A program made the position numbers and the translations under genes. Of a DNA stretch of 64,000 nucleotides, positions 27,601-63,300 are shown piece by piece. How positions within the stretch are numbered: the stretch's first letter is position 1; the number at the start of each line of letters is the position of its first letter. Under the pieces are notes generated by a model that was not told where the DNA came from, did no database searches, and saw nothing but the letters and a program-made list of their open reading frames with translations. The DNA is taken from IMG/VR virus record IMGVR_UViG_3300025723_000018; one strand, 5' to 3'. The DNA comes from an uncultured virus (IMG/VR IMGVR_UViG_3300025723_000018). Taxonomy: Duplodnaviria > Heunggongvirae > Uroviricota > Caudoviricetes.

Positions 27601-30600
27601 AATTAATTGACCGTATCTGTTAATTTCTGAAGGAATGTAAGAAATTTGTTGCCAAGATGGTTGTCCGTTAACTGTAAAATTAGAAATTGCTCCATTCTGG
27701 TCAACCGACGATACTGTTAATATAAAGTCATTGACCACATTGACTCCTCCTAACTGACTACCAAGGACTGTAATCGTATCTCCAATAGAATATCGTGTAC
27801 CTCCAAGGGCGCCTGAATTAGGAGCAATCCTATATCCGTAAGGAGGAGTTATGATACGTAATGTTGCACCTGCTCCTGATATAACTGATCCACTAACACC
27901 TGGCGTAGTTTTTGCTAGTAAGATTCCGTTGTTTAGTGTAGAAGGAGAACCAGAAATAGTTATAGCAGCATTTAATTTTATACTAGAAGTTGTTGTAACA
28001 CCATCTGTTGGTATAGTGATTGTTAAATCGTCGTCTGGAGATATTCCACCTAACTGAGTTCCTGAAATTTTTATTTTGTTACCTGGAGCGTAGCCAATAC
28101 CGCCATATTTTATAACTACATTATAGTATCCTGCAGTTGGCACTGTGGCATCTCCAATTACTCTTGTAGCTGTTGGAACAACAACCACGTCAAAGATTGC
28201 ACCTGAACCTAAACTTGTAGTAGTTGCACTGAAATCAGTAACAATATATTCATGTTGAATAGCGGTAAGAGTTCTGTATAAAGAATCTCCAAGTTTTACA
28301 ATACTGTTTGAACCGTAGTCAAGTGAAGAATTGTATTCTCCTTTGTAGCTAGACGAAACTGATCCAGCTGATTTTGATCCTACAGCAAGCCAAGTACCAT
28401 CTGGGCTAAAGGCTATGGCACTAACCGGAGTATTATCTGATATAGAAGATACTGTTGGAGCTGATATTAATTGTTTTTCAGCCCATGATAAGTTTGACTG
28501 AGCACGATAATATGTAACAACATTACCTCGGTTATCGCCTACAGCTAACATGTCTCCTTTTTTGTTTACAGACACACGTAAACCAAAATTTGTTTCATCG
28601 CTTGGAAAACTATTGTTAACTAAAAATTCGCTGTACACTGGATTATATTTCCAAGTACCCCAAGATTTACTGCCAGCATCATCTGTCCAAACAATTTCTC
28701 CAGGTAGTAAATCTTTTTTTATAACACTATCGAGATTATTAATAGATGTAGTTCGTTGACTAATCATAGCAAACACTACCATTCTATCTTGTTCAACAAA
28801 AGGATTTATCCAACCGTTAACAGTTTTAGATATTACAAAAGAATTTAGATTAACACTTTCAACTTTATAAAAACCGCTAAATTGCGAAACTTGGCTTATG
28901 CCTATATACATTCCAGCTGTTATTCCTGACAAATATTTTGTAGAAATTGTTATCTGTTTAAGAGTAGGATTGTATATTGCATTTTCTACTGTTATATTCA
29001 TATCAGTATAGCGATACACATTCCAACTGTTACCTTCAAATGCTACCCATACACAATCTCCATTATTAAACTTAGTAATGTCTTGTGTAGTTAATTCGTC
29101 TATAGTTCCTAAACTTAATAATACGTCTGCTGGGTTAACATAACCTGCACTACGTAACAATGGCTTGTAAGGATTAGTATCATCAAACACAGGAAACGGA
29201 TTAGAATTGTATCCTGCTGGTTTTAGATATACATCTTGTGCAGCTTGTTGAATAACAAAATCATTAATAGATGAATCGTAATGTTGTACTAGTGCTACAG
29301 CTTGAGGATTACTATTAAAATTGCCTTCATCTAATACAAACTCAACATCTTCAAATGCACGATTGGCACCATATTGACCAACACGTAACGCCCACTCTTC
29401 GTAGAACATTAAACTTTCTGCGTTGTCTGAACTTAAAACATTAAACAACTTATTAAGAACATTTTGTGTTCCTTTTTCACGAACCATTCCTTGATAGAAT
29501 TTAAATTCGCTAACATCATCTTGAATAATATTTTCAAGATATTGACGTTTTTGATAGCCAATTAAATGTTGTGCCATCTTTTGTTGTTGAGAGTCAAAGT
29601 TATCAACTTCTAAACTATAGAAATCTGTAAATTGTGTTGCCAAATTAGTCCAGTTTGGCATAATAACTGGGCTAGGTGTTTTAGACATTACAGACCAATC
29701 GCTAGAAACAAATGTGTCCGACCCTGCTAAAAATTTATTTGCACTATAATAATGTCCTTGATGTAGAATTATGTCTCCCATATTATAGTCTTGCCATGGT
29801 TGCCAGCTATCTACACTAGCAGCATCAAATATAAATCCAGGAATATCTAATCCGCCATACCAGTTAGTGGTTACATAACCACTTACCTTAATACGTTCAC
29901 GTCTATATCCGCTTGGAGGATTGTAAATTACATCATTAAAAATATCAGTATTTTTAATTGTAACAACGTGTTCGTTTTGTATTAAGTAAAAACTAGCACT
30001 ATAAATTCCATCAGTTGTTCTTGGAGCATAGGTAATAGTGTTACCTTCTCTATAACTGTCCATTTGTTTAGGAGAAATACTAGTTCCGTCTACTTTAAAA
30101 ATTTCGTAATTATTAAACTTGTTACTAATATCATCAACTACAGTTAGTGTAGTTGTAAATGTTACAGCAGCCGCGCTTGGGCTTAAACTGATAACACTTG
30201 CTCCTGCAGCACTTAACCCATCTAATTTATTAAAATCGTCTGCGTTAAATTCGGCGCTAGGAGGAATATTAGTTATAGCACTATAGTAATTTCCGTTATA
30301 TCTTAAAATAGTTCCATAAGAAATTGCTTGATTTGGTTTCCAATCACTCCACTTTTCTTGACCAGTGCTCCAGTTCTGTGTACTCCAAAATAAAAATTCT
30401 TTTGCACTAGTTTCCCAGTTTAACACAGATTCAAGATTGCTATTATAGTCATCAAATACAAATCCTTGGTTTTTTAAATATTCACCATAGCCTAGTAAGA
30501 AGTCTACTACTTCCTGAGCAGAACTAAACTCTGTTCCATAGGGTACAGTAATTAAAGTTGAGCGATCCCAAATTTTTCTAAAAATAACATCAACGCCGCC

Positions 30601-33600
30601 TACAGCAGGCAAGCCAGGTAATACTTGGAAATATTGTGTATCAAATGTTGACTCGGTATTAGCAACTACTGTTCTATAATATTTGTTATTATATTCAACA
30701 ATAGACCCTACAATATATTGTTGGCCTGGAGTCCAAACAGAATATGTTTGACTTATTCCGCCGACATTTATTGCTGATCCTGATTGCTGGAAATCATAAT
30801 AATAAAAATACGGTTGCGTTCTACTATATCCACGGACTTGATATCCTGTCTGAAGTTTAGTAATCATTACACCGCTGTAAGTTAATTTCTTAACAGGGCT
30901 ACTTGTGTTTAAGAATATACTATAATCTTCCTTTGGAATGAATACATTTCCAGTACTCATCGGAGTTTTACTTTCTAGTAAAAGATTAAATTGATCTTGA
31001 TTTGTAAATGCACCAACACGATAACTTAGTTGTGCTGTCATTAATGCCAAATCAGTTTCGTAACTGTTATAGCTAGCAAGATTATTACTAAAAATATAAT
31101 TTAAAATAAGATCTATAACATAGTTAATAATACCAGATGTTTGTACTCTGTTTTCACTAGAATATATGCTTGGCAGAATTATATCCATTGGACGTAGACG
31201 CAAACCAGTGTCTTTATAAATCAATTGACCGGCGAGATTTCTAACAATTCTGCTTCTATCTAATAATGTTCCAAATGTTTTTGCAGGAGTTAATAATAAA
31301 CTGGCTGCAATAACACTGAACGGATAATAACTACTTCTACGCCAAGCATTCTCAACTGGCGCAACATCACCGAATACATAATCGCCATCAACACTTGGTG
31401 TAATTGGACCATTGGCTAACCCTGTTATTGTTGGGTTTAATAAATTACCAGACTCGTCTACTGGAATGCAGTTCATTAAGAAAGGTTTAGCATATTTGGT
31501 TTGATATACTAAAGGTTTTCCAGGTTCTCTAATTATACCTTCAGATATATCTTGCCACATTACAAGATTATCTTTAGTGTAAGGAGAAGGCCCATAGACA
31601 CTAATCCACCAGCTAGGCATAATACTAAACCCTAGCATTTCCCAAGGACAAATGTTTGGACGGTCAGTGTCTAGCAAATATTTGTAAATACCTCTCCAGT
31701 ATCCTGGTATCTTTCCACCAGTAGGTCCAGTACTACGTTTGTAGTTGTATGTAAATGGATTTCCAATATCGTAGCTTAGAGGTTTAGTAAAATCGCTACC
31801 AATTAATCCTGTCCATTTATAAAAATTAGGTGCTAATACTTGTTCAAATTCTACTCGGCTATAATCATTTGTTCTATTATAACTAGGAATAATATCATTA
31901 ATATCAAAAATAGTAGGATCGTATTGAACTTTTATGTTATTAAAAATACGTTTTTCTAATTCTAAAATAATATCATCTCTGTAGTCATTGTATGCTAAGA
32001 CTAAACTTCCGTCATGTCCTTGAATAATGTTTACAGGAGTCAATAATGTAGTGTCTAAGTATTTCTTTGGTTCATACTTTGGCCACATTCCTAATTTTGT
32101 AGGTGTTGATGGGATAAAACAACCGTCAGTACTTTCATATTCGTAGGTAGTTATAGTATCACCGGTAACTAGAGAATGTATTATATCAATAAATCCTTGA
32201 CTATCAAAAGTATAGTCGGTTCCATACACAAGTTGTACTTGATTTAAATATACACCAACCGCTTTATTAGACATTGTGTCTAAATTGAATACAGTTGTAA
32301 GAGGATACTTTTTAATTCTACCGTCAACAACAGGCAAATCTGTTACTAATTTTGCACCGTATGGAACCATATCGGTAAAATAATAAGGTGCTGTATTTGG
32401 TTTGTTGGCATTAATTTTTTGTAAAATTAAATCAACCATAGTAACTGGATCTGCATCTATACCTAAGTTAGAAGCAATAGATAAGAAATTACGTTTAAAA
32501 TTATTGTAATCATCTCGAGCAGTTTCAATTGCTTTAATTACATTTGTATTTTCACTTGTTATATGATATAAGCTAAGACTTAATGGTCCACTATGTTGCA
32601 CAAAACGTGTACCGTATTGTGTTATATTACCAAGATCCCTTAAATCGCTTTCACCCGGAAAAGCTCCAATAAAATCAATATTGTCTACGATTGTGTTTAC
32701 ATGATCGGTAACTTCACCTAATGTAAAGTCCGCCATACTATCGTTTAATGGATTATTTTGTAAATTAATCGGTATTTCATAATAACCGTTAGAATTTATA
32801 GGCTGTGCAGCAAATGCTTTAATTGTCAACACATCTGTTAACGATATTGCTGTGTTTAATACAATTTTTTTATAAAGAGTAGTATCAACTAACTTCCATT
32901 CGGTAGAATTTAATCTTTGCCCGTTAACATAAATGCGAACAACTAAATCTGAAAGATTTGTAATATCGTCAAATATATCTAAATTAAAATTATTTGTAAT
33001 CTTAGAATTTTTATAAATTCTAACAGCGGCTTGTACAGTTTTAGTATTGCAAATTTGCCAACCGTTCTGGTACATAGGACGGCCTGCATAGTCTTGTCCT
33101 ACTAAAAATCCTACATCAATTTTTTGTGTAATAAGATTTGTAGTTTGTTTGTATTGAAAACTATCAGTTGCTAGATTAAAATTAAAAACTATATCACCAA
33201 TGTTTGCTACATTTTGATAGCTTAATGGAAAACCTAAAACGCTATCATTGATACTATTGCCAACTTTGTAAGAAAATAACTGTGTGCCTTTGAAGGTAGA
33301 TCCATTATATACACTGGTATCTCCGTAACTAATTCCATTGTTGTCTACTATATCAAACAATGGCGCTTGATTGGTATTAGTTTTTTGTTGTGCTTCTACC
33401 CAAGTTGTTCCATTAAACCAGAACATTTGGCTATAATAAGTTTTACCAGATTTAATTATAGCTGTTTGTCCAACGGTAGGAGTTTCAGCTTCTACTAAAT
33501 GAATTTGTTTACTACCAGAATTTAAATGACGCAGATCTACAAAAGTTACTTCGTAAACTTTATTAACAACTAATGGATCAATATCAGCTGTAACTAAAAT

Positions 33601-35007
33601 TCTATGTCCTTGTACTAGATCAACGCCGTCGATATTATAACCACTACTTCCTTCTATGGTTGAAAATACGTCTACTGTAAAATTATCAATTAAATCTACA
33701 TCTGTTATGGCTTGTGTACCAAAATTAAATAATTTTAAATCTGAAACAAATTCAATAATTGGTCGTGTTGCTCTAGCTTTTTGATCTAACTCAGGTGCAA
33801 TGTTGTTATAAGCACAACTTGCTTTAATTACATCTTGGTGGAACCAACGATTATATCTTGACCAAGGATTGTGATCTCGACTTGTTCTGTTAATAGTGAT
33901 ATAGTCTTGTACGCTGGCATAGCCAGTAGCATCACTAAATGGTTCAGATTCGAATGGTGTGCTATCAAATGCAGAAGTTTGTTCAATAGTATAAGGTGTG
34001 ATAATTTCTAAAACACTAGTTGGTACTAAACGTATTGCTGTACCTACACCATCAACATAATATTCACCTTTTCCGTAACTAGCAGGTGTAACATTACCAC
34101 CAAAACTTACTTTCATACCGTTACTAATAGCGGTACCGTCTGTTAATTTGTATGTTTGTTTTCCAAGAAAATCTTTTTCAACATCGATAAAGCTATTTTC
34201 ATCAATGCTAAAAACTTCAATACTACCACCAAGATTGATATCTGTTTCACTTTGATAATATAGTATACTTGGTGCATCTAGCGGCACAGTAAAAGTTATT
34301 GTTCCATCAGTTACCGCATAGTTATCAATGTTTCTATTAATATATCTATCAATGGAACCAATAGATCGAGATAATTTAATACTAAAAGGATTACCTGGAC
34401 TATTGATTACAAATGTATAAGTATGACCTTTATAAATTTTAAGTATTGGATCAGGTGTGAATCCATCAGGAGTAAACACATACTGATTATTTGCTCCTTC
34501 ATTTTGTAATTCTACAGAGATAGTACTAGAAATTTTTTCTTGCTGTCCATAAATTTTAATAACTTCTGGACCGTACGGCAACCAATAATAATTTTGAAAA
34601 TTAACGAACTTATCCCAATCGATATGCGGATCCCAACTGTAAAATTCTTGTGAATTTAAGCGTTGGTGACTCTTTGTATTACCGCCAAAGACGCCAATTT
34701 GATTAATATAGTCAATGTAATCTTTAAAGAATTTAACATTACCAAGACTATCTCTAATAGTAATACCTGGCTCTAGTTGATAATTTTGTCGTGTTGTATC
34801 TGCAGCTGAAATATAATTGTCAGTGCCTATAGCAGCTTTTGCATTTTCTCTTCCGATAAATCCGCTAGTTTTTGTAACACTACCTGGTTGGAATAACTGG
34901 TCTATTGTTGCTTGTAAAAACTTTTTATTTGCCGGAGTTTGAAAATACTTTGGTAATAAGTTTAAACTAGGGCTTGTGATACCTGTTGGGTTATTAGCAT
35001 TAGCCAT
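18625..35007 (-). CDS. Giant (5460 aa) baseplate wedge/structural protein in the gp7 position
   Basis: Uninterrupted 16.4-kb ORF directly after the gp6-like gene; LLPKYFQT...KFL N-terminus, VKPYRTK motif, GSGY..P.V.I repeats, FG-GAP-like repeats. Confidence 0.8.
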   Translation of the reverse strand: MANANNPTGITSPSLNLLPKYFQTPANKKFLQATIDQLFQPGSVTKTSGFIGRENAKAAIGTDNYISAADTTRQNYQLEPGITIRDSLGNVKFFKDYIDYINQIGVFGGNTKSHQRLNSQEFYSWDPHIDWDKFVNFQNYYWLPYGPEVIKIYGQQEKISSTISVELQNEGANNQYVFTPDGFTPDPILKIYKGHTYTFVINSPGNPFSIKLSRSIGSIDRYINRNIDNYAVTDGTITFTVPLDAPSILYYQSETDINLGGSIEVFSIDENSFIDVEKDFLGKQTYKLTDGTAISNGMKVSFGGNVTPASYGKGEYYVDGVGTAIRLVPTSVLEIITPYTIEQTSAFDSTPFESEPFSDATGYASVQDYITINRTSRDHNPWSRYNRWFHQDVIKASCAYNNIAPELDQKARATRPIIEFVSDLKLFNFGTQAITDVDLIDNFTVDVFSTIEGSSGYNIDGVDLVQGHRILVTADIDPLVVNKVYEVTFVDLRHLNSGSKQIHLVEAETPTVGQTAIIKSGKTYYSQMFWFNGTTWVEAQQKTNTNQAPLFDIVDNNGISYGDTSVYNGSTFKGTQLFSYKVGNSINDSVLGFPLSYQNVANIGDIVFNFNLATDSFQYKQTTNLITQKIDVGFLVGQDYAGRPMYQNGWQICNTKTVQAAVRIYKNSKITNNFNLDIFDDITNLSDLVVRIYVNGQRLNSTEWKLVDTTLYKKIVLNTAISLTDVLTIKAFAAQPINSNGYYEIPINLQNNPLNDSMADFTLGEVTDHVNTIVDNIDFIGAFPGESDLRDLGNITQYGTRFVQHSGPLSLSLYHITSENTNVIKAIETARDDYNNFKRNFLSIASNLGIDADPVTMVDLILQKINANKPNTAPYYFTDMVPYGAKLVTDLPVVDGRIKKYPLTTVFNLDTMSNKAVGVYLNQVQLVYGTDYTFDSQGFIDIIHSLVTGDTITTYEYESTDGCFIPSTPTKLGMWPKYEPKKYLDTTLLTPVNIIQGHDGSLVLAYNDYRDDIILELEKRIFNNIKVQYDPTIFDINDIIPSYNRTNDYSRVEFEQVLAPNFYKWTGLIGSDFTKPLSYDIGNPFTYNYKRSTGPTGGKIPGYWRGIYKYLLDTDRPNICPWEMLGFSIMPSWWISVYGPSPYTKDNLVMWQDISEGIIREPGKPLVYQTKYAKPFLMNCIPVDESGNLLNPTITGLANGPITPSVDGDYVFGDVAPVENAWRRSSYYPFSVIAASLLLTPAKTFGTLLDRSRIVRNLAGQLIYKDTGLRLRPMDIILPSIYSSENRVQTSGIINYVIDLILNYIFSNNLASYNSYETDLALMTAQLSYRVGAFTNQDQFNLLLESKTPMSTGNVFIPKEDYSIFLNTSSPVKKLTYSGVMITKLQTGYQVRGYSRTQPYFYYYDFQQSGSAINVGGISQTYSVWTPGQQYIVGSIVEYNNKYYRTVVANTESTFDTQYFQVLPGLPAVGGVDVIFRKIWDRSTLITVPYGTEFSSAQEVVDFLLGYGEYLKNQGFVFDDYNSNLESVLNWETSAKEFLFWSTQNWSTGQEKWSDWKPNQAISYGTILRYNGNYYSAITNIPPSAEFNADDFNKLDGLSAAGASVISLSPSAAAVTFTTTLTVVDDISNKFNNYEIFKVDGTSISPKQMDSYREGNTITYAPRTTDGIYSASFYLIQNEHVVTIKNTDIFNDVIYNPPSGYRRERIKVSGYVTTNWYGGLDIPGFIFDAASVDSWQPWQDYNMGDIILHQGHYYSANKFLAGSDTFVSSDWSVMSKTPSPVIMPNWTNLATQFTDFYSLEVDNFDSQQQKMAQHLIGYQKRQYLENIIQDDVSEFKFYQGMVREKGTQNVLNKLFNVLSSDNAESLMFYEEWALRVGQYGANRAFEDVEFVLDEGNFNSNPQAVALVQHYDSSINDFVIQQAAQDVYLKPAGYNSNPFPVFDDTNPYKPLLRSAGYVNPADVLLSLGTIDELTTQDITKFNNGDCVWVAFEGNSWNVYRYTDMNITVENAIYNPTLKQITISTKYLSGITAGMYIGISQVSQFSGFYKVESVNLNSFVISKTVNGWINPFVEQDRMVVFAMISQRTTSINNLDSVIKKDLLPGEIVWTDDAGSKSWGTWKYNPVYSEFLVNNSFPSDETNFGLRVSVNKKGDMLAVGDNRGNVVTYYRAQSNLSWAEKQLISAPTVSSISDNTPVSAIAFSPDGTWLAVGSKSAGSVSSSYKGEYNSSLDYGSNSIVKLGDSLYRTLTAIQHEYIVTDFSATTTSLGSGAIFDVVVVPTATRVIGDATVPTAGYYNVVIKYGGIGYAPGNKIKISGTQLGGISPDDDLTITIPTDGVTTTSSIKLNAAITISGSPSTLNNGILLAKTTPGVSGSVISGAGATLRIITPPYGYRIAPNSGALGGTRYSIGDTITVLGSQLGGVNVVNDFILTVSSVDQNGAISNFTVNGQPSWQQISYIPSEINRYGQLIESGYFSIGNTYEISVLGTTDWNYIANTTGVTYNVGDTFVARQSGKVLATDLQSGSTYVIIFQGTSNFLLAGASSNAIGTAFIADAPITGTGFVFNGTGVAIEQIKAYDSTTVGQGIVTLYKKNNDNFYSIVDTIISEDPVDNENFGATLVFGQDSLYVGALGGSSYDGLTNNVGRVYKLSYGVQKSVSATYNPVGSSGVTLVVSSTNPIPLYNVSPGMLVTGTGFISGQYVLQILSTTTLILSAPPTGTPDGTITFKTIDWGYNSFLAGTTVGDNFGRNIQVSADNSIIAISTEDGNGNGIVQIFKNGITLQPISGTDVSFGTSLSVSDDGVYIVVGDGTQNGTVNVYKFNGAEYGPTPYQTLVDHYSEIQGHFGNKVAFMNGGKTIAVYSQSGNASITTTFDSYAKTLENNQDNPYLSDTTSQATTPSTYDKNSTLFVQTQIGSGRVDIYDMYGDKWVFSESLQSADTSSDGYGIGFSAGDNTVVVGAPYATDQTHIQSGQVYSYVKPSDKYSWTLDKTSSLIPIVSRVKKAFLYNKNLGTLVSYLDTIDPLQGKIAGVADEEIKYKSFYDPAVYSDNPGSVNVNADNSSYWSKNQIGQLWWNLSTAKFVESYFDDVNYRNNSWNKLAPGASIDIYEWVESKLLPAQWDAQADTPAGLALGISGTSLYGNNVYSVRQQYNNLTKAFVKTYYFWVKNKSVVPHVPGRNITALDVASLIANPRGQSYSYLSLLGPDSFSLTNTRQYLKDKDVVLAVEYWLTNKTDQNIHSQWKLISNDPIVDLPLTLEQKWFDSLCGVDSAGRGVPDLTQPPKLRYGVENRPRQSMFVNRIEALKEFVERTNRTLILNQISENYNISALESYDTPPTVISGLYDNTLDTDAELPYLNITSFRKAILNPVITNGTITSIDITFAGSGYLIAPTVTIDSPGKNAVLKTTINSLGQITNVSVVSGGFGYDISNTTLTVRTYCVLVKSDSVANNNWSIYAYDTTSKIWSRILTQAYDVRNYWNYVDWYATGYSQYSAPDHAVDTFVGLNTLQSKIGELVKVRTVNAGGWLLLEKYANSTSVDWTQSYNIVGIQNGTIQLSTKLYNFESTNIGYDSDIFDGGSFDVVASTELRIILNTIKENIFIGNLKQNYLDLFIAAIHYAHSEQVYIDWAFKTSFVRATHNVGKLDQPVNYPVDNIANFEDYVSEVKPYRTKLREYISNYTGLEVGQSAITDFDLQPVYSNNKVVPVDTIFDGTGVSSNNSVIQTYPWKFWNDNLGFVVTDLVIISGGSNYITPPQVIITSESGSGATAQAFIVNGAVSRIVLTNPGTGYLSTPTVTISGGLGPIGISARVIAVIGKGVVRGSLIGIKFDRTDYTYYNTVLQKTQTFTGSGSRLQWALTWAPDTRIGQNTVTINGIPALRENYKLSVIKAKYNGYTHYTGVITFLTPPSNQSIIVVTYKINQSLLNAVDRIQYYYNPTSGQLGKDLTQLLTGTDYGGVQVNGLGFNSIHGWDSNPFGTDTWDNFDSNYTDYFVTATADQLRSFTLPYQLNPGTEINVYHAASTEDRTTISALNSNQIKFEYNILATTVVVTSVVTKTAAGPTTTYNPVGSYYTTLTVSDATGILIGMAVVGTGFTSGQTVTYVDYTNKTLTLSKAPDSTPTGVLTFTYNYAGSNKLTLNSVDGINLGDVVTSDAVSVFAYDTVVENIDTNTNTITLGTPDSSTTLNANNISGDGHTVTITFDTQKYVPFESGTTIIVTGFIPNSYNGIYKVTNASFNFVSFTSLLQAPSTTIGTVSLILNSVIFKDPAQINNYYPIVNGNSIQFTKLLKDTIDMVVNNDGTVVLLSYVPAIGAEIVITGKTSPVRLDDPKFGTVDQKNSKAKMQTPFPVFSVTVTSPGRYTQLPAITFSDSDLNAPSYTASATPIMKAVDVSYNGNNLGTGYTVGDILVATPQYGPANVTMINSSIVNSTLVVGTITSGEIYPGMILTGSGIAQFDSLISTGIRGDGTIATITFATRASIPFALGQYTEVSGFPNGFNGKYIVTDVTDHSVSYENTTVLSQTFVVGTVSSVDITYITGLDPSSHGTGNGSFWTLNRKLTTASTTITGSSAVILQVTRTASFTEIGPIDELQILSSTIYEGGVDEASQSLMGGTGQNATITLVYGVDSVVLANPGSGYLNNPTITFEQGIETATATATIRQVVNSSTANTVVTISDSYPVTVGDEFVIRQASSDGSVAPADQDYDTSITGGDLAYTTATGILADDIIIDGDGLVTPTSSPAPEEVMPGQVVDTLAIKVYDQTYNAGAKVKIDNYVGDGSLLTFAYSQLLNNPGAIVVKVDNVIKVAGVDYNVSFNQNRIVFVQPPAANKIISIFTIGINGQNILDGDYFICDGITSEFITRAKWLDTVSSVIYLNGVLVNPILFKTDNTYSLGGMIGLRFSVTPAAGSVINYIIVASAIQTVAVTQTELLPLYAIPQNTFKLDNPVGVGLPAESNMIVIVDNTVLEAPANSYFTITSDTLAYTISADQFTLNAVQYSDVRVYIDKKLIALNKEYVVDLTGLTVTLRKKIRDKNIGKQLVVSIRTNAEYSYDSTTGDLTLNNSYDSSHKIQVLTSYNHDILDLERTTVNISSLVSSIPGSVDYYRYQDATRGIINLNHTVPDEEYAWIIQNGRLLTPLIDYQMLSNHQSVQLTVPPAPTDKISVLLFNNNVPQPGISYMQFKDMLNRTVYKRLALNRHTLLAQELNWYDTQIVVKDGTVLTTPNPSTNKPGVIEIAGERIEYFKKDLNILSQLRRGTLGTGVRSYSNVGTSVQDIGTDSTIPYSDITDVRPIISDGVTTTFNLDLGFTLDPTFTDYNSLFEVFVGGQDDLRRLKKYDYVHYNPTLAPYSPTIPISDTDPVGTIKDGDEKFAKEFVVSNVTTAGSVITLANVVTQGTQITIIRKSGQSWDGDHSANPVNILNDVSNIASFLKATPGIWYTGFNNNRKLTIDSSKVTFDSGNVTLDKG

Positions 35008-45158: not shown

Positions 45159-45920
45159 ATGTTTATCTATAAAATTATCGTTAATAATAATGTTTATATA
45201 GGACTTGATACTAAACCGTCCTATAAGTTATCACGATGGAAAAAGCATTGCGATGAGGCAACTACAAGATGTAAAACAAAATTACATAAGGCTATGAATA
45301 TGTATGGCATAAAGAATTGTGTAGTTGAAATATTAAAAGATAACTTTAAGTCTATTGGAGAACTTGCGTTATCGGAAATTGATTACATTAAGCAATACGA
45401 TTCTTATAAAAACGGACTTAACTCTACTCCAGGTGGAGACGGTTTAGGAAAATACGATTTAACTTTATTATCGCTTGCAGATATAAACAAAATCAAATCT
45501 GCATTAGGTGAGCATTTTAGTAATTATAATAAAAATATCAAATGGGCAGGAACTACTGAAGTTGATAGAAAATTATTAACTAAACATTTACATACTGACG
45601 AAATTTATCAAAAGAAATCGGATACCCTTAAGAAATTTTACAAAGCAAATCCAGATATTGCCAAAACAAAAGCAGTAGGGATTAGAAAATGGCAGTTGGA
45701 AAATCCAGAAGAAATGAAGAAACGCAATCAGATTAATTCGATTAAAGGTGCCGCGGCTGTTTCGAAGAAACTAAAGGTTGAACTGGAAGACGGTAATGTG
45801 TTATACTATTCAAGTAAAAGTGAATTCCATAGATTAACAAATCAATGGGCAAACACCATTATTAAAAAAACACAAGAAGGTGTTTTCTACAATGGTTATA
45901 AAATATGGGAAGAAAAATGA
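45159..45920 (+). CDS. Free-standing GIY-YIG homing endonuclease (Seg-like)
   Basis: FIYKI...VYIG, RWKKH, E..YIKQYDSYKNGLNSTPGG; basic C-terminal region; more AT-rich than its flanks. Confidence 0.8.
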   Translation: MFIYKIIVNNNVYIGLDTKPSYKLSRWKKHCDEATTRCKTKLHKAMNMYGIKNCVVEILKDNFKSIGELALSEIDYIKQYDSYKNGLNSTPGGDGLGKYDLTLLSLADINKIKSALGEHFSNYNKNIKWAGTTEVDRKLLTKHLHTDEIYQKKSDTLKKFYKANPDIAKTKAVGIRKWQLENPEEMKKRNQINSIKGAAAVSKKLKVELEDGNVLYYSSKSEFHRLTNQWANTIIKKTQEGVFYNGYKIWEEK

Positions 45921-46159
45921 ACAACTACGATATGTCTATTCACACAAACCCTGATGCAAGAGCCTGGGCTAAATTCTTTGCTGAAAAGTATACAGTATGG
46001 TCGGAAGATGGTGTAGAGTCTGATAGTGAGGCTTTAATGACTGCGTGGTTTGCCAATGCTATGATGGCGATGCACGATCATTTAGTGTTGAAAGGTAATC
46101 CAATCAATGGAGATCATGCCCAATATCTTATAGATACCGAAAACGGAGTTAAAGAATAA
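45917..46159 (+). CDS. Hypothetical protein (80 aa)
   Basis: ATGA overlap with the endonuclease stop; TAATG overlap with gp47. Confidence 0.7.
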   Translation: MNNYDMSIHTNPDARAWAKFFAEKYTVWSEDGVESDSEALMTAWFANAMMAMHDHLVLKGNPINGDHAQYLIDTENGVKE

Positions 46160-47172
46160 TGGCAAACTTATTTAAAAAAGTTGCGTGTATGACCGATATT
46201 CATTTCGGTCTCAAGAGCAATTCATCAGTACACAATCAGGACTGTGAAGACTTTGTAGATTGGTATATTGCCAAAGCAAAGGAGGAAGGTTGTGATACAG
46301 GTATCTTTATGGGCGATTGGCATCATAATCGCAATAGCCTTAATATTACTACAATGGATTATAGCCTTAGGGCCTTGGAGAAGTTGGGACAAGCGTTTGA
46401 TCAGTTCTACTTCTTTCCTGGTAATCATGATCTGTACTATAAAGACAAACGAGACATACACTCTGTGGAGTTTGGAAAGTATATACCTGGTATCACTGTG
46501 GTACATGAGCCTACTACTATTGGAGATGTCACGCTGTGTCCATGGTTGGTGGGCGAAGAATGGAAGTCGGTAGGTAAGAAAGGCGGGAAATATATATTTG
46601 GACATTTTGAATTACCTAACTTTTTCATGAACGCTATGATACAAATGCCAGATCATGGAGAGATTCAACTAGATAGTTTCAAACAATATGAACTAGGTTT
46701 TAGTGGACACTTTCATAAGCGTCAGCAACAAAAGAACATGATTTACATCGGCAATGCTTTCCCACACAATTATGCAGATACATGGGACGATGATCGCGGC
46801 ATGATGGTTATGGAATGGGGAGGGCAACCTGAATATTTTAGTTGGCCAGATCAGCCTACTTTTAGAACAGTAACACTAAGCCGTCTAATCGACGAAGCAG
46901 ACACTATTATCAAATCTAAGCAACATTTACGTGTTACGCTAGACATTGATATTACATACGAAGAAGCAAGTTTTATTAAAGAAAAGTTCATGGCAGATTA
47001 TGACATCCGCGAACTTACTCTTATTGCAGAAAAGAAAGATGTTGAAATTAATACCAATATCGATGTACAAGCATTTGAATCAGTAGATCAAATCGTTAGC
47101 AATCAAATTGTTAGTATTGATAGCGATACCTACGACAAAAATATTCTACTGAGCATTTATAACAGCCTATGA
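46159..47172 (+). CDS. Recombination endonuclease subunit, gp47/Mre11/SbcD-like
   Basis: Metallophosphoesterase motifs DIHFG, GDWHH, GNHD, GHF, SGHFH. Confidence 0.92.
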   Translation: MANLFKKVACMTDIHFGLKSNSSVHNQDCEDFVDWYIAKAKEEGCDTGIFMGDWHHNRNSLNITTMDYSLRALEKLGQAFDQFYFFPGNHDLYYKDKRDIHSVEFGKYIPGITVVHEPTTIGDVTLCPWLVGEEWKSVGKKGGKYIFGHFELPNFFMNAMIQMPDHGEIQLDSFKQYELGFSGHFHKRQQQKNMIYIGNAFPHNYADTWDDDRGMMVMEWGGQPEYFSWPDQPTFRTVTLSRLIDEADTIIKSKQHLRVTLDIDITYEEASFIKEKFMADYDIRELTLIAEKKDVEINTNIDVQAFESVDQIVSNQIVSIDSDTYDKNILLSIYNSL

Positions 47173-48944
47173 AAATAAAAGAATTAACCGTTAAAAACTT
47201 TATGAGCGTGGGTAATCAAACCCAAGCTGTAAACTTCGGAAAGGAAAACTTAACACTTGTGCTAGGTGAAAACTTAGACCAAGGCGGTGATGATAACGGC
47301 AGTCGTAATGGTACAGGTAAAACTACCATTGTAAACGCTCTTAGTTTTGCTTTATTTGGTAACGCACTTACTAACATTAAAAAAGACAATCTTATTAACA
47401 AAATTAACAACAAAAATATGTTAGTGACTTTGACGTTTGAAAAAGACGGAACAGATTATCGAATTGAACGTGGACGTAAACCCAGTGTTATGAAGTTCTT
47501 TGTTAACGACCAAGAACAAGAAGGCGAAGAATCCGATGATAGCCAAGGCGATCAACGTGAAACACAAAAAGACATCGATGAACTTTTTGGCATGAGCCAC
47601 GACATGTTCAAGCATATTGTTGCGTTAAACACTTATACAGAACCGTTTTTATCAATGCGGGCCAATGACCAACGTGTTATTATTGAACAGTTGTTGGGTA
47701 TTACTATTCTTAGCGAAAAAGCAGAAACGCTTAAAGAGCTAGTTAAGCAAACTAAGGATGCTATTACACAAGAGTCTGCAAATATCGAAGCTGCCAAGAA
47801 ATCTAATGATAAAATACAAATTAGTATTGATAGTTTGTTAACTAGACAAACAGCTTGGAATACGCAACATGCTAACGAACTTGAAAAGATAGGACGTAGC
47901 ATAGTAGAGTTGGAAAGTGTAGATATTGAAGCTGAGCTTGCGAAGCACAGCGAGCTCAAAGAGTTCGATGAAAAAACAGCGAAGCTGCGAAGTTTAAATA
48001 AGGAACGTGCTACGTTAGATAGCGCGATAGCGCAAGCGGAGCGAAGCGTTACGAAGTATGAACGCGAACTCGCCTTATTGGCAAGTAAGACCTGTCACGC
48101 TTGTGAACAACAGCTACATGATCATAAGCATGAAGAAATGACAGCTCTAGCTCAGAAGCATCTGGACGAGGCGGTCATTTACTTTACTAAAGTATCAAAG
48201 GACCTGGAAAAAATTACAGCAGAAATTACTTCTATTGGTGAGGTTCCAGCCAAGCCTATTACCTACTACGACAGTTATGAGCAGGCGCTTAAACATCAGA
48301 ACAACTTGAAGACTCTTGAAAATCAACTGATACAAAAAAGCAATGACACAGATCCTTATCAGGAACAGATTGACGAACTCACTGACACTGCCATGCAGGA
48401 AATCACCTGGGACAATGTTAATACTTTAACCAGCTTAAAGGATCATCAAGAGTTCTTATTAAAATTGTTGACTAGCAAGGATTCCTTTATCCGTAAAAAG
48501 ATTATAGATCAAAACCTAGCATATTTGAACAATCGTCTAACTTATTATCTTGATAAGATGGGATTGCCTCATACTGTGTTATTCCAAAATGACTTAACCG
48601 TTGAGATCACCCAGCTAGGGCAAGATTTAGATTTTGATAATCTAAGTCGAGGTGAGCGGAATAGACTTATCCTTGGTTTGTCATGGTCGTTTAGAGATGT
48701 TTGGGAAAGTTTATATCAACCTATCAACTTGTTGTTTGTTGACGAGCTTATTGACAACGGGCTTGATGCTGCAGGTGTTGAAGGCGCATTGGCTGTACTA
48801 AAGAAAATGGGTCGTGAACGCAAGAAGAATATTTTCTTAATTAGTCACAAGGACGAACTAATCGGCCGTGTTAACAATGTGTTAAAAGTTATCAAAGAAA
48901 ACGGCTATACTAGCTATGCTAACGATTTAGAAATTAATGAGTAA
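47169..48944 (+). CDS. Recombination ATPase subunit, gp46/Rad50/SbcC-like
   Basis: KNFMSVGN, Walker A NGTGKT, coiled coil with CHAC zinc hook, LSRGE signature, LLFVDE Walker B, ISH. Confidence 0.93.
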   Translation: MKIKELTVKNFMSVGNQTQAVNFGKENLTLVLGENLDQGGDDNGSRNGTGKTTIVNALSFALFGNALTNIKKDNLINKINNKNMLVTLTFEKDGTDYRIERGRKPSVMKFFVNDQEQEGEESDDSQGDQRETQKDIDELFGMSHDMFKHIVALNTYTEPFLSMRANDQRVIIEQLLGITILSEKAETLKELVKQTKDAITQESANIEAAKKSNDKIQISIDSLLTRQTAWNTQHANELEKIGRSIVELESVDIEAELAKHSELKEFDEKTAKLRSLNKERATLDSAIAQAERSVTKYERELALLASKTCHACEQQLHDHKHEEMTALAQKHLDEAVIYFTKVSKDLEKITAEITSIGEVPAKPITYYDSYEQALKHQNNLKTLENQLIQKSNDTDPYQEQIDELTDTAMQEITWDNVNTLTSLKDHQEFLLKLLTSKDSFIRKKIIDQNLAYLNNRLTYYLDKMGLPHTVLFQNDLTVEITQLGQDLDFDNLSRGERNRLILGLSWSFRDVWESLYQPINLLFVDELIDNGLDAAGVEGALAVLKKMGRERKKNIFLISHKDELIGRVNNVLKVIKENGYTSYANDLEINE

Positions 48945-49218: not shown

Positions 49219-49644
49219 ATGTCTTGGTACTATAACAATGAAATTGTAGAAGAACTTCCCGAAGATTGTGTTGGGTTTGTATATCTTATAACAAACACAA
49301 TTACAGGGCGTATGTACATAGGCAAAAAACTAGCAAAATTTTCTAAAACTACTTATCGAACAGTAAAATTAAAAAACGGCACTAAGAAAAAAAAGAAAAT
49401 CCGCAGTAAAATTAACAGTGATTGGCAGACCTATTATGGGTCGTCGGATGAATTACTCAAGGATATTGCGCAGTTAGGTCAAGAAAACTTTCGCAGGGAA
49501 ATACTGTTTTACTGTAAATCCAAAGCAGAAACGTCATATATAGAGGCTCGTGAACAGTTCAGCCGTCGTGTGCTGGAATCAAAAGACTATTATAATGGTC
49601 AAATTTCCGTGCGTGTACACGGTTCACACATACTCAAATCATAA
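49219..49644 (+). CDS. Short GIY-YIG nuclease-family protein (endonuclease II-like)
   Basis: GFVYLITN..TGRMYIGKK, W..YYGSS, F.REIL, E...Q, YYN; Lys-rich insert. Confidence 0.8.
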   Translation: MSWYYNNEIVEELPEDCVGFVYLITNTITGRMYIGKKLAKFSKTTYRTVKLKNGTKKKKKIRSKINSDWQTYYGSSDELLKDIAQLGQENFRREILFYCKSKAETSYIEAREQFSRRVLESKDYYNGQISVRVHGSHILKS

Positions 49645-49669: not shown

Positions 49670-50045
49670 TAAGCCAGCACAGGCGTTGACATTGTGCCCT
49701 GAATCCGTTCTGTTGTGTGACGGCAAGGTAGTTCTGCTTGGTGACAGAGTTATAAATCACTATCCTTTACAGGACGACGATTGGATATGCCATAACCAGT
49801 TTGATTTATAAGGGGAAGTAACAAGGCTAAAAGAGGGGTAGTAGCCCCACGGTTTAACAAGTGTTAGCGTATTTGTTAAGCCCGCCGTCATATAAAGACT
49901 CTGCTCGTGGTACCGGATGACCGCCACTGTAATGCAGTAACGCTAAGGTGATATTGTGCAACTCGGATAATGTCAAAACAACTTTGCCCGCTAGGGCAAA
50001 GTGTGACTGAACAATCTGGATAATATCTTAACGCTTCGCGTTTAA
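49670..50045 (+). ncRNA. Candidate large structured non-coding RNA of unknown class
   Basis: No long ORF; GC-richer than the genome; nested helices 49686-95/49967-76, 49714-24/49884-94, 49750-59/49802-11, 49851-63/49870-82, 49981-89/49994-50002; G-U pairs favour the + strand. Confidence 0.65.
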
Positions 50046-57691: not shown

Positions 57692-58561
57692 ATGACTGAC
57701 CGCGCTCAATTTGAAGCAATGCTTGAAGCTTTGATCAATGAAGATCATGAGCAAGCAAAAGAAATATTCCACAACATCGTTGTTGGAAAATCACGTGAAA
57801 TTTACGAAGAATTATTAGCAGAAGACTTCAGCCCAGAAGAAGCTAACAAACACGCTGGCCTAGGCGGACACCAATCTGAAAACATGGAAGAAGAAGATGA
57901 TTCTATGGAAGAAGACATGGAAGAAGAAGGTGCCGAAGAAGAAAAAGGCGAAGACGAGCCAGAAGACGACGGTGAAGACGATGGCGAAGAAGAGCCAGAC
58001 TTCGGCGGTGAAGACGATGGCGAAGAAGAGCCAGACTTCGGCGGTGACGAGGAAGGCGATGCCGAAGGTGGCGATATCGAAGATCGTGTTATGGATCTAG
58101 AAGACGCTTTAGAAGACCTAAAAGCAGAATTTGAACAACTAATGGCTGATGAAGAGCATGAGCCAGAGCATCATGACGGTATTGATGATCCAGCATTTGG
58201 TGGCATGGATGCAGAACAAGATGAAGTAGCACATATGATGGAATATGTAAACAAAGTTGCACTACCAAAACATGGCGACAATGGTCAAAATACAAAATCA
58301 GTTATTGACAACATGAAGAACGATATGGGCGGCACAACTGCTAATATTGCTAAAAACTTCAGCACAACAACTGGTGGAACACAAGGCGGATTATTGAAGC
58401 CAAGTACAACACTACAAGACGGTGGAAACATCAATAAGCCAGGCGCTAATGCAGGCAAGACAGCGTTCAAGAAGAAAGAACCTGGTCATGGTCCAGAAAG
58501 CAAAGGCAAAGGCGAATCAGCTGACAATAAAAAGTCAACGATTGGCGGAAGAATTCGTTAA
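57692..58561 (+). CDS. Acidic prohead core protein (gp67/gp68 position)
   Basis: Very E/D-rich; between portal and protease; AGGAG SD. Confidence 0.65.
   Translation: MTDRAQFEAMLEALINEDHEQAKEIFHNIVVGKSREIYEELLAEDFSPEEANKHAGLGGHQSENMEEEDDSMEEDMEEEGAEEEKGEDEPEDDGEDDGEEEPDFGGEDDGEEEPDFGGDEEGDAEGGDIEDRVMDLEDALEDLKAEFEQLMADEEHEPEHHDGIDDPAFGGMDAEQDEVAHMMEYVNKVALPKHGDNGQNTKSVIDNMKNDMGGTTANIAKNFSTTTGGTQGGLLKPSTTLQDGGNINKPGANAGKTAFKKKEPGHGPESKGKGESADNKKSTIGGRIR
57970..58047 (+). repeat. Exact 36-bp tandem duplication (GEDDGEEEPDFG x2)
   Basis: cggtgaagacgatggcgaagaagagccagacttcgg at 57970 and 58006. Confidence 0.9.
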
Positions 58562-61506: not shown

Positions 61507-61537
61507 TTCAAACCTAAACAGTTTATTAGTAAAAATA

Positions 61538-61564
61538 AAAAGGACCTTCGGGTCCTTTTTGTTT
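61538..61564 (+). terminator. Rho-independent terminator after the capsid gene
   Basis: AAAAGGACC-ttcg-GGTCCTTTT followed by further Ts. Confidence 0.9.
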
Positions 61565-62169: not shown

Positions 62170-62231
62170 GTACGATCCACATAGGGTGGATTTTATGCGG
62201 AAATCCAACCGCGTACGGCCTAGAACGCCGT
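62170..62231 (+). promoter_or_regulatory. Structured 5' leader after a TAAATA late-promoter motif
   Basis: Helices 62175-80/62186-91, 62194-200/62209-15, 62215-19/62227-31, with alternative pairings. Confidence 0.55.
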
Positions 62232-62253
62232 GTTTTCATAAGGAGAAAATAAA

Positions 62254-63300
62254 ATGGGACGTCCTCTAAATAAGAAATATTTTGGTAATCGTAACGTCGG
62301 ATCTGATGGAACATTCGCATCAGGTGCTACTTTGTCTAATACCAGCGCAGAAATTGGTGGTAAGAGCATCTCCAGTTTCAACATTACAAACCGTGGTTCA
62401 TGGTTATCAAACAACGTAAGTCCAAATGTGCCTGTACTAGGTTTGGCAGTACCAGCTCCACAAATTGCTGATGGTATCCAAGCAACTTGGTCAGTGACTT
62501 ATTGTATTGACACAGTAACAACTAATGCTGGAAAAACAGGATTGGTAACTGGCGATACTTATACAAGCTCAATATTCCCAGGATCAATAATCACTGTTGG
62601 CGACCTAAGCGGAGCAAATGCTTTGTTTACAGTTACTAATGCCGGTAGCACTGGTAACATTCCACTTGATACAACAACAGTTAGTATTACTCAATTAACT
62701 GGTACAGGGGCTGCTACTTCTTTTACTGTTGATATTCATACAAAATTAGCCACAGCCAATATTAACAATGTGGGTTCTGGTTATACAGAAGAACAAGTGT
62801 TTACTATTACATTAGCAAACGGTGCTACAGGTACTCCTCCAACAATCAGTATTGTACTAACACAACCAGATCCAACACAGGCTGCAGGTAGCGTTGGTGA
62901 TCGTGAGCCAGCTATTATTGCTTATGCTTGGTTAAGCGGTGCGCCAGCAGAAGTTGATATCGTTCGTCAAGTGTCAACAGATCGTTATCGTATAAACAAA
63001 AATGGCGAGTATACACGCACAGGCGCACACACTGGTAAACTAAAAGAAACTGGTTTAGTAAGCGGAACATTTACTGGTAATGAAGGCGCAGAAATGAATA
63101 TCTGGGCATTTGATGCAAGCGGCAATTCATATCTTGTTAAGAAATTAACAGCTCGCAAGGCAGTAGTTTATCCAGTTGCTTGTGCTCGTTTAAACAAGTC
63201 TGCTGGTTCAATATTTGCTGCAGGCACAGCAGTTCCTTGGAAATTCTTCCCAGGACAAGCAAACGCTAGTGCAGGTTACGTGAAGATTGAAAACGCTTAA
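62254..63300 (+). CDS. Virion structural protein (348 aa, Thr/Gly-rich)
   Basis: AAGGAG SD; GSGY motif; beta-rich; downstream of the capsid gene. Confidence 0.7.
   Translation: MGRPLNKKYFGNRNVGSDGTFASGATLSNTSAEIGGKSISSFNITNRGSWLSNNVSPNVPVLGLAVPAPQIADGIQATWSVTYCIDTVTTNAGKTGLVTGDTYTSSIFPGSIITVGDLSGANALFTVTNAGSTGNIPLDTTTVSITQLTGTGAATSFTVDIHTKLATANINNVGSGYTEEQVFTITLANGATGTPPTISIVLTQPDPTQAAGSVGDREPAIIAYAWLSGAPAEVDIVRQVSTDRYRINKNGEYTRTGAHTGKLKETGLVSGTFTGNEGAEMNIWAFDASGNSYLVKKLTARKAVVYPVACARLNKSAGSIFAAGTAVPWKFFPGQANASAGYVKIENA

Follow-up and report, generated by a model that had tools for sequence, protein, structure and literature searches.

The 64,000-nucleotide (nt) stretch of DNA analysed here, called the window throughout, comes from an uncultured freshwater virus of the Caudoviricetes (IMG/VR record IMGVR_UViG_3300025723_000018). 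Its open reading frame (ORF) 47169..48944 on the + strand encodes a homologue of gp46/Rad50/SbcC of 591 amino acids (aa), identified by PHROG 77 (SbcC-like, E 4e-102) and by the Pfam domains AAA_23 and SMC_N. Upstream of gp46 lies gp47/SbcD (46159..47172), which is itself preceded by a gene for a gp55-type late sigma factor, and because gp46, gp47/SbcD and the gp55-type gene are all present the phage is classed as T4-like. The closest related record, a 97.8-kb fragment that is 26% complete, has 97% of the window's words in common. One relative contig is 356 kb long and rated 96% complete, so the phage of the window is considered a jumbo phage. A public phage collection held distant matches only, with 67-70% identity over parts of gp46. 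The present analysis concerns a GC- and CpG-rich patch of 135 base pairs (bp) in the gp46 gene, which encodes coiled coil and lies 20-150 nt upstream of the codons for the zinc hook, and in particular a block of 28-29 nt within it (codons 285-293 of the 591 in gp46) that is nearly invariant at silent positions in one clade of relatives and reads as a chain of mini-hairpin DNA words (Table 1).

Table 1 Features of the gp46 locus in window coordinates; fractions of 29 refer to core-bearing relatives.
Feature	Position	Strand	Basis and conservation
gp46/Rad50/SbcC-like gene bearing the element	47169..48944	+	ORF list, translation, PHROG, Pfam
GC-/CpG-rich patch (core and halo)	47939..48073	+	GC 0.50; 17 CpG vs 8.65 expected
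Accessory GCGAAGC, semi-conserved	47940..47946	+	hairpin in 14/29; GCG wobble 0.36
Accessory GCGAAGC, semi-conserved	47979..47985	+	hairpin in 15/29; GCG wobble 0.44
Frozen block AGC GCG ATA GCG CAA GCG GAG CGA AGC G(T)	48021..48049	+	wobble conservation, synonymous diversity, alignment
Alternative 4-bp hairpin GCGC-GAYA-GCGC over words 1-2	48022..48033	+	stem in 26/29; loop T/C
Word 1, GCGATAGC (GCGNNAGC)	48024..48031	+	pattern scan; stem in 29/29
Word 2, GCGCAAGC (GCGNNAGC)	48030..48037	+	pattern scan; identical in 27/29
Word 3, GCGGAGC (GCGNAGC)	48036..48042	+	pattern scan; identical in 26/29; missing from the preliminary description
Word 4, GCGAAGC (GCGNAGC)	48041..48047	+	pattern scan; identical in 28/29
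Zinc-hook codons TGT CAC GCT TGT (Cys-His-Ala-Cys)	48093..48104	+	alignment; possible RNA pairing partner of 48031-48043

A preliminary description of this DNA had reported an abrupt CG-rich shift over the patch, codons that looked uncommon elsewhere in the gene, and eight short back-to-back hairpins. All eight hairpins are indeed present in the sequence where they had been placed, and the shift in composition is borne out as well: GC content over the 135 nt is 0.496 versus 0.37, a level reached by 1.3% of windows. When synonymous codons were permuted within the gene, none of 5000 permutations reached the 17 CpG of the patch. The 60 nt beginning at 48006 hold 11 CpG against a window mean of 1.6, the highest count in the 64 kb. 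CGAAG (5 copies, 0.54 expected) and GCGAAGC (3 copies, 0.19 expected) likewise attained the observed numbers in 0 of 5000 permutations, and the three GCGAAGC copies are all that the + strand of the window contains. As for the codons, GCG makes up 5 of 7 Ala codons in the patch versus 3 of 29 elsewhere in the gene, and CGA 2 of 4 Arg codons versus 2 of 18, so that the description holds for these two; AGC, which had been named with them, accounts for 9 of the 29 Ser codons outside the patch and is not rare.

Compared with codon-shuffled controls, the density of hairpins in general is hardly above chance. The 135 nt contain 28 hairpins with stems of at least 2 bp, 11 with at least 3 bp and 4 with at least 4 bp, whereas the means are 21.0, 5.8 and 1.7; 8.6%, 4.4% and 11% of windows, respectively, reach these counts. 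The corresponding P values are 0.030, 0.017 and 0.127 under codon permutation, and 0.044, 0.049 and 0.46 when only the patch's own codons are permuted and composition is thereby held. Folding of the patch as DNA gave no marked stability for either the + strand (z -0.89) or the - strand (z -1.17). Window counts, permutation P values and the non-significant minimum free energy (MFE) z scores thus rule out a generic hairpin excess as the main signal, and the wider impression of a hairpin array is mostly a by-product of local GC richness. The class that does stand out is that of hairpins with G-N-A loops, of which the patch has five, the maximum of the window and a number reached by 0.1% of windows. 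A second cluster of CGAAG and CpG at 57934-58078 proved unrelated. It derives from an acidic 36-nt tandem repeat, GEDDGEEEPDFG, which occurs twice in ORF 57692..58561, itself placed between the portal and head protease genes.

For the comparative analysis, a protein-guided scan of viral contigs recovered 604 relatives among 605 candidate stretches, of which the best 80 were taken. The partial loci L027, L030, L040, L041, L065, L068, L070 and L080 were dropped and L076 was skipped, leaving 71 full-length genes in use. Synonymous diversity was defined as the fraction of same-amino-acid pairs with different codons. A set of carriers picked by CpG content would make such a test circular and was not relied on; an unselected set was used instead. 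In the 36 unselected relatives with at least 80% aa identity, the ten-codon window at 48018 shows a synonymous diversity of 0.218 compared to 0.479 gene-wide, which is the lowest of 582 windows. The same window shows no dip in the 34 relatives below 80% aa identity (0.499 versus 0.534, rank 183). The block is furthermore the top 30-mer in a 7.8-kb alignment.

Scanning viral contigs with the exact 19-mer 48030-48048 yielded at least 120 loci. Among the matches listed, 118 of 120 lie at the same gp46 codon; the two outside gp46 are both one unrelated GC-rich sequence and were rejected as a chance match. From all loci we drew 98 different 200-nt segments that depart from the 19-mer at no more than two positions and thinned them to 76 that are <93% identical, giving 77 sequences together with the window. 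Wobble conservation in these 77 sequences is 0.38 at 48020, rises to 0.95-1.00 at each of the nine wobble positions spanning 48023-48047, and falls to 0.61 at 48050. The 19-mer part is conserved by construction in loci fetched with it; 48021-48029 lie outside the query, however, yet are equally frozen, and the protein-fetched set shows the same block. All carriers share the boundaries of the block, which are precise to a single codon. The frozen codons GCG and CGA are not the preferred ones of the gene, and the A-ending codons ATA, CAA and CGA are frozen too.

Conservation of the individual hairpins, numbered 1 to 8 along the strand, separates the core from the rest of the patch. Among the 29 core-bearing relatives (window excluded), hairpins 4, 5 and 6 are kept in 26-29, hairpins 1 and 2 in 14 and 15, and hairpins 3, 7 and 8, mostly lost, in 6, 3 and 5; any given hairpin occurs in 0-4 of the 37 non-carriers. 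Most of the 135 bp therefore varies freely at synonymous sites among homologues, while the core is frozen in one clade, and the earlier idea of a nucleic-acid signal overprinted on coding sequence fits this core of 28-29 nt and not the whole patch. The accompanying notion of a tolerant coiled coil has to be given up, as the amino acids encoded here are among the best conserved in gp46 (0.91-0.96). From these comparisons we consider it highly probable that 48021-48049 carries an element under purifying selection at the nucleic-acid level, on top of selection on the protein.

The block can be described as four overlapping mini-hairpin DNA words of the types GCGNAGC and GCGNNAGC, all on the + (sense) strand, which read GCG-AT-A, GCG-CA-A, GCG-G-A, GCG-A-A, GC. 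The recognition of d(GCGNAGC) and d(GCGNNAGC) as mini-hairpin DNA is reportedly owed to the work of Hirao and co-workers. A GC is common to each pair of neighbours, so that adjacent words cannot form hairpins simultaneously and only every second one can. The words are spaced by 6, 6 and 5 nt and are thus out of step with the codons. The one polymorphism that is common, T or C at 48028 (Ile/Thr), affects an N of word 1, and the rare variants of the block are changes from GCG to GCA, each of which abolishes one word. In a pattern scan the background of the motif on the + strand was 0.30 matches per kb, with further matches outside the core at 47940 and 47979. A chain of four words within 30 nt is unique in the window, and the 356-kb relative likewise has a single one, at gp46.

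The remainder of the patch may be regarded as a halo, whose upstream accessory words are gained and lost and whose downstream hairpins are due to chance. In the 102 nt upstream of the block, carriers average 1.20 motif words versus 0.155 expected from their own codon usage, an 8-fold excess, and 20 of 30 have at least one; none of the 37 non-carriers has a motif word in these 102 nt. Downstream of the block, carriers show no enrichment of motif words. The halo represents either weakly selected accessory words or remnants of an ancestral GC-rich allele. Beyond the zinc hook, an outgroup lineage without the block (L052, at gp46 nt ~1020-1055, L014 and L018) has short GCGNNAGC chains of its own, with four words in L052 and two in L014, in phase with Ser/Ala codons; these may reflect convergence or a by-product of the peptide. 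As a candidate second motif chain they were set aside as suggestive only; the follow-up pattern was too loose, with 8 of 119 matches at gp46.

A rise in GC and CpG is seen in most relatives with at least 80% aa identity, mostly to 7-14 CpG per 100 nt versus ~3 elsewhere in the gene, and is absent in L024, L025, L035, L072, L009 and L013 as well as in every relative below 80%. A tree calculated from the gene minus codons 251-311 places all carriers of the block in one clade (40 rows, SH-aLRT 97), made up of uncultured T4-like jumbo phages. The 40 rows are bimodal over the 28 nt, with 31 showing at most 3 mismatches, 3 showing 4-6 and 6 showing at least 8. Within the clade there are two alternative alleles of gene nt ~810-960. 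L072, L024 and L035 are scattered on the tree, yet they are 82-89% identical to each other over this segment and each only ~58-66% identical to its own tree neighbour. Judged by these identities, their AT-rich alternative allele was acquired by recombination.

Such a history invites a reading without function, in which a GC-rich allele arose once, through biased conversion or from a GC-richer relative, and was spread by recombination, the sameness of the block reflecting recent descent. The mosaic nature of gp46, with pairwise identity of ~50 to 94% along the gene, the two alleles in the clade and an upstream halo that resembles a decaying remnant are in line with it. We nevertheless hold it to be improbable, given that the codon-sharp edges are shared by all carriers and that the flanks within 90 nt of the block have diverged no less than the remainder of the gene. 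In windows of 90 nt surrounding the block, carriers differ by about 20-25% (L008 and L029, for instance, share only 77-84%), so a recent sweep of a long tract does not explain 28 frozen nucleotides; nor is a recent sweep easily reconciled with the T/C polymorphism at 48028, an old one that lies within the block. A GC3 drive does not account for the pattern either, because ATA, CAA and CGA are frozen too. The peptide encoded by the block has orthologous residues in outgroups (SAIAQAERSV versus TAVIQADKSV, for example), and none of 185,579 prokaryote genomes matches the 24-mer taken from the block; import from a cell is therefore unlikely, and a cellular donor or CRISPR spacer was rejected. A rather unlikely alternative, although less so, is an RNA element in the gp46 mRNA, serving as protein operator or pairing with the zinc-hook codons to form a stem, and tuning translation, pausing or decay. 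The block does sit once per genome inside the gene it could regulate, and GCAA is a GNRA loop (review PMC13037366). RNAalifold, run on 50 of the 77 sequences, pairs 48031-48043 with hook codons 48093-48105 through ten pairs in which hook-side variation is all C/T opposite G, and the core-hook duplex of carriers is stronger than its synonymous control (-15.1 versus -12.0 kcal/mol; -11.8 versus -10.6 kcal/mol in non-carriers). However, the mean z of this duplex is only -1.25, with 7 of 30 carriers at the <=5% level (non-carriers: mean z -0.43, 3 of 37), and the peptide itself, with Gln-Ala opposite Ala-Cys, dictates much of the complementarity. There are no compensatory double changes, the helix covers 13 of the 28 frozen bases, folding as RNA gives z values of -0.44 to +0.46, and a scan of 47500-48500 against Rfam returned no match on the block at E up to 10.

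Recognition as double-stranded DNA (dsDNA), by a protein or as a cluster of site-specific nicks made for instance by the neighbouring GIY-YIG nuclease, appears unlikely. It draws on a purine-GCG step that recurs five times on one strand (AGCG 5 times in 29 nt, elsewhere in the window at most 2 per 60 nt), on the T5 major-nick consensus R/GCGCRGG (PMC3517423), and on ORF 49219-49641, 141 aa and 1.2 kb downstream of the block, which encodes a stand-alone SegE-type GIY-YIG domain (Pfam PF19835, E 1e-33) and was found in 73 of 80 loci. The block does not, however, match the T5 consensus in full; this ORF is equally conserved without the block and hence gives no co-occurrence signal, and contig ends are only mildly enriched, with 7 of 21 within 250 nt of the block (P ~0.06, not significant). 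A small antisense RNA with the block's complement at its 5' end would use a sigma-70-like site on the - strand, 48084 to 48055, with a start near 48048 at the block edge, and a terminator-like hairpin with T-run at 47988 to 47970. We find this very improbable: promoter-like and terminator-like sites are as numerous as shuffling predicts, the -10 element needs a TAT that is TAC in many relatives, the T-run codons vary freely and no more than 15 of 29 relatives retain the terminator hairpin. A 27-aa ORF in the +2 frame at 48058 needs a TAT codon for which many relatives have TAC, and no other-frame ORF of at least 20 aa crosses the block. Equally hard to credit is a translational pause, whereby a cluster of slow codons would time the folding of coiled coil and hook. 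GCG, CGA and ATA are uncommon codons, the first two being rare elsewhere in gp46, and CAA is a common one in AT-rich genomes. But AGC, present twice in the block and common elsewhere in gp46, is just as frozen, and so is CAA despite its being common; moreover, selection for rarity would permit swaps among rare codons, and none is seen.

Several features of the surrounding genome were recorded alongside the element. The SegE-type GIY-YIG protein is 72-79% identical even in several relatives whose gp46 is only 56-60% identical; on these grounds it resembles a domesticated nuclease more than a mobile one. A different GIY-YIG gene, homing-endonuclease-like, occupies 45159-45917 (253 aa; PHROG 314, 7168 and 5123; no Pfam match). 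Together with an 84-aa ORF it fills 45159-46156 between the late-sigma gene and gp47. None of the 80 relatives has either of them, the late-sigma gene directly adjoins gp47 in all 64 loci with both of these flanking genes, and from this arrangement the segment looks like a recent mobile insertion. A homing-endonuclease target or co-conversion tract as the origin of the block was rejected, the gene at 45159-45917 being absent from all 80 relatives and the SegE-like ORF being present with and without the block.

Downstream, the gap between convergent genes holds a match to the Rfam Polynucleobacter-1 RNA at 49672-49811 (78.9 bits, gathering score 37). Conserved sequence continues to about 50120, and the stretch 49880-50040 is strongly conserved, with two hairpins whose stems covary, one of them with the apex GCTTCGC. 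Pairing of the block with this non-coding RNA was considered and dropped: the 11-nt complement at 50029-50039 is the apex of the covarying hairpin and is kept without the block. GCTTCGC is present in 25 of 25 carriers but also, by our own row count, in 12 of the 22 non-carriers whose anchor could be located; conservation does not extend to the longer complement, and by our estimate about two 11-mer complements are expected by chance. Further away, a freshwater-2 RNA motif (Rfam, 75.4 bits, gathering score 49.9) lies at 62175-62256, just before ORF 62254..63297, and a palindromic terminator-like hairpin (A-run, GGACC-TTCG-GGTCC, T-run) at 61536-61560 recurs at three places in the 356-kb relative. 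On the - strand, 18628-35007 is a single ORF of about 5,460 codons among tail and baseplate genes.

Regarding the form in which the block might act, we tentatively favour single-stranded DNA (ssDNA) on the sense strand, a proposal that is plausible though far from assured. It is preferred because DNA mini-hairpin words explain the block almost end to end, because these words are strand-specific, and because of the properties attributed to them. According to the review PMC13037366, GCGNAGC and GCGNNAGC DNA hairpins are extraordinarily stable, nuclease-resistant and poor binders of single-strand binding protein (SSB), their RNA versions are less stable than the DNA, and they mark priming and promoter sites. 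The sense strand would become single-stranded during replication, recombination or transcription, upon which the block would snap into very stable mini-hairpins that resist nucleases and bind SSB poorly. The folded block could then mark a fixed place in the genome for a priming, loading or end-protecting step.

A number of observations weigh against this ssDNA proposal. The block shows no excess folding stability as DNA (z -0.46) any more than as RNA, and only 4-bp and interrupted 6-bp stems are predicted; nearest-neighbour parameters may miss sheared G-A loops, and conventional models do not account for mini-hairpin stability (PMC13037366). Loop base 48044 is free both as an Arg wobble and as the N of its word, yet it is 0.99 conserved, and more than the generic motif must therefore be selected. 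As the block hardly varies, it offers no covariation, and conservation cannot separate DNA from RNA, or a fold from a binding site. Six in-clade relatives do without the block, at least L072, L024 and L035 of them sharing the AT-rich allele, so it is dispensable or replaceable. A role as origin finds no origin-type GC skew at the block: cumulative skew in the 356-kb relative has its global extremes near 0 kb and 305 kb, with only a small local turn in the 5-kb bin of 90-95 kb that holds gp46, a bin in which there is also a strand switch, ~2 kb away from the block. For none of the specific roles suggested beforehand (origin, primase or helicase loading, packaging) did we find direct evidence. 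Finally, pairwise identity alone is not special, because the window and the 356-kb relative share 32 exact matches of at least 26 nt elsewhere (26-51 nt); these matches in other genes compare two genomes only.

A more specific form of the ssDNA proposal, which we regard as speculative and improbable, would make the block a one-per-genome single-strand landmark, a start or break site for recombination-dependent replication placed inside the recombination nuclease's own gene. The mini-hairpin chain on the displaced sense strand would keep SSB off and stop exonucleases, and would fix where the primase-helicase or the neighbouring GIY-YIG nuclease acts. Should this be true, T4-like jumbo phages would possess an origin-like signal of a new type. 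Mini-hairpin DNA words have been described at only a few priming sites and promoters, in small phages and plasmids, and documentation of their natural role is still thin. A search for papers combining 'mini-hairpin' and 'gp46' in the full text returned none, prior description having been sought by that pairing alone. A four-word chain frozen at the silent positions of an essential repair gene provides strong comparative evidence that large dsDNA phages use such words. The block of 29 nt can be synthesised, and the AT-rich allele, which encodes nearly the same peptide, offers a natural negative control for in vivo tests.

Comparison with described systems places the block near, and not within, several of them. 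In PMC13037366, mini-hairpin words are described in the priming sites of G4, St-1 and alpha3, in RSF1010 ssiA and in N4 promoters. Like this mini-hairpin DNA, the block has four words that fit the motif, lies on one strand and carries its common polymorphism on an N; unlike it, its words overlap within a coding gene of a dsDNA jumbo phage, and one N is frozen. The words are shared with the G4, St-1 and alpha3 sites and ssiA, which mark single-stranded initiation and for which poor SSB binding has been proposed. These sites, however, have 8-bp stems over ~40 nt and lie in non-coding DNA of ssDNA replicons (PMC13037366), whereas the block has no long stem; the extended hairpin of ~40 nt or more that typifies them is lacking, given the short stems predicted here. 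The early promoters of the N4 virion RNA polymerase share GCGGAGC and words with GAA and GGA loops, but theirs is a 5-bp stem upstream of early genes (PMC13037366). The likeness to N4 promoters drawn in the preliminary description is not upheld, since the GGA and GAA loops of the block are closed by 2-bp stems and lie in the middle of gp46; an N4-type polymerase itself was not searched for. On the features tested, stem length and position, the block is thus not a member of the G4, St-1, alpha3, RSF1010 or N4 systems.

With the T5 nick sites (PMC3517423) the block has in common a purine followed by GCGC on one strand, which it shows twice; both A/GCGC run into GAT and AAG, not RGG. A last parallel is offered by the regions of excess synonymous constraint detected by FRESCo, where local loss of synonymous change marks an embedded element (PMC4376164). 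This approach has chiefly been used for other viruses and for RNA structures, whereas the block lies in a DNA phage. Assessed by this measure of synonymous constraint in unselected homologues, the block ranks first of 582 windows, as an embedded element of that kind would.

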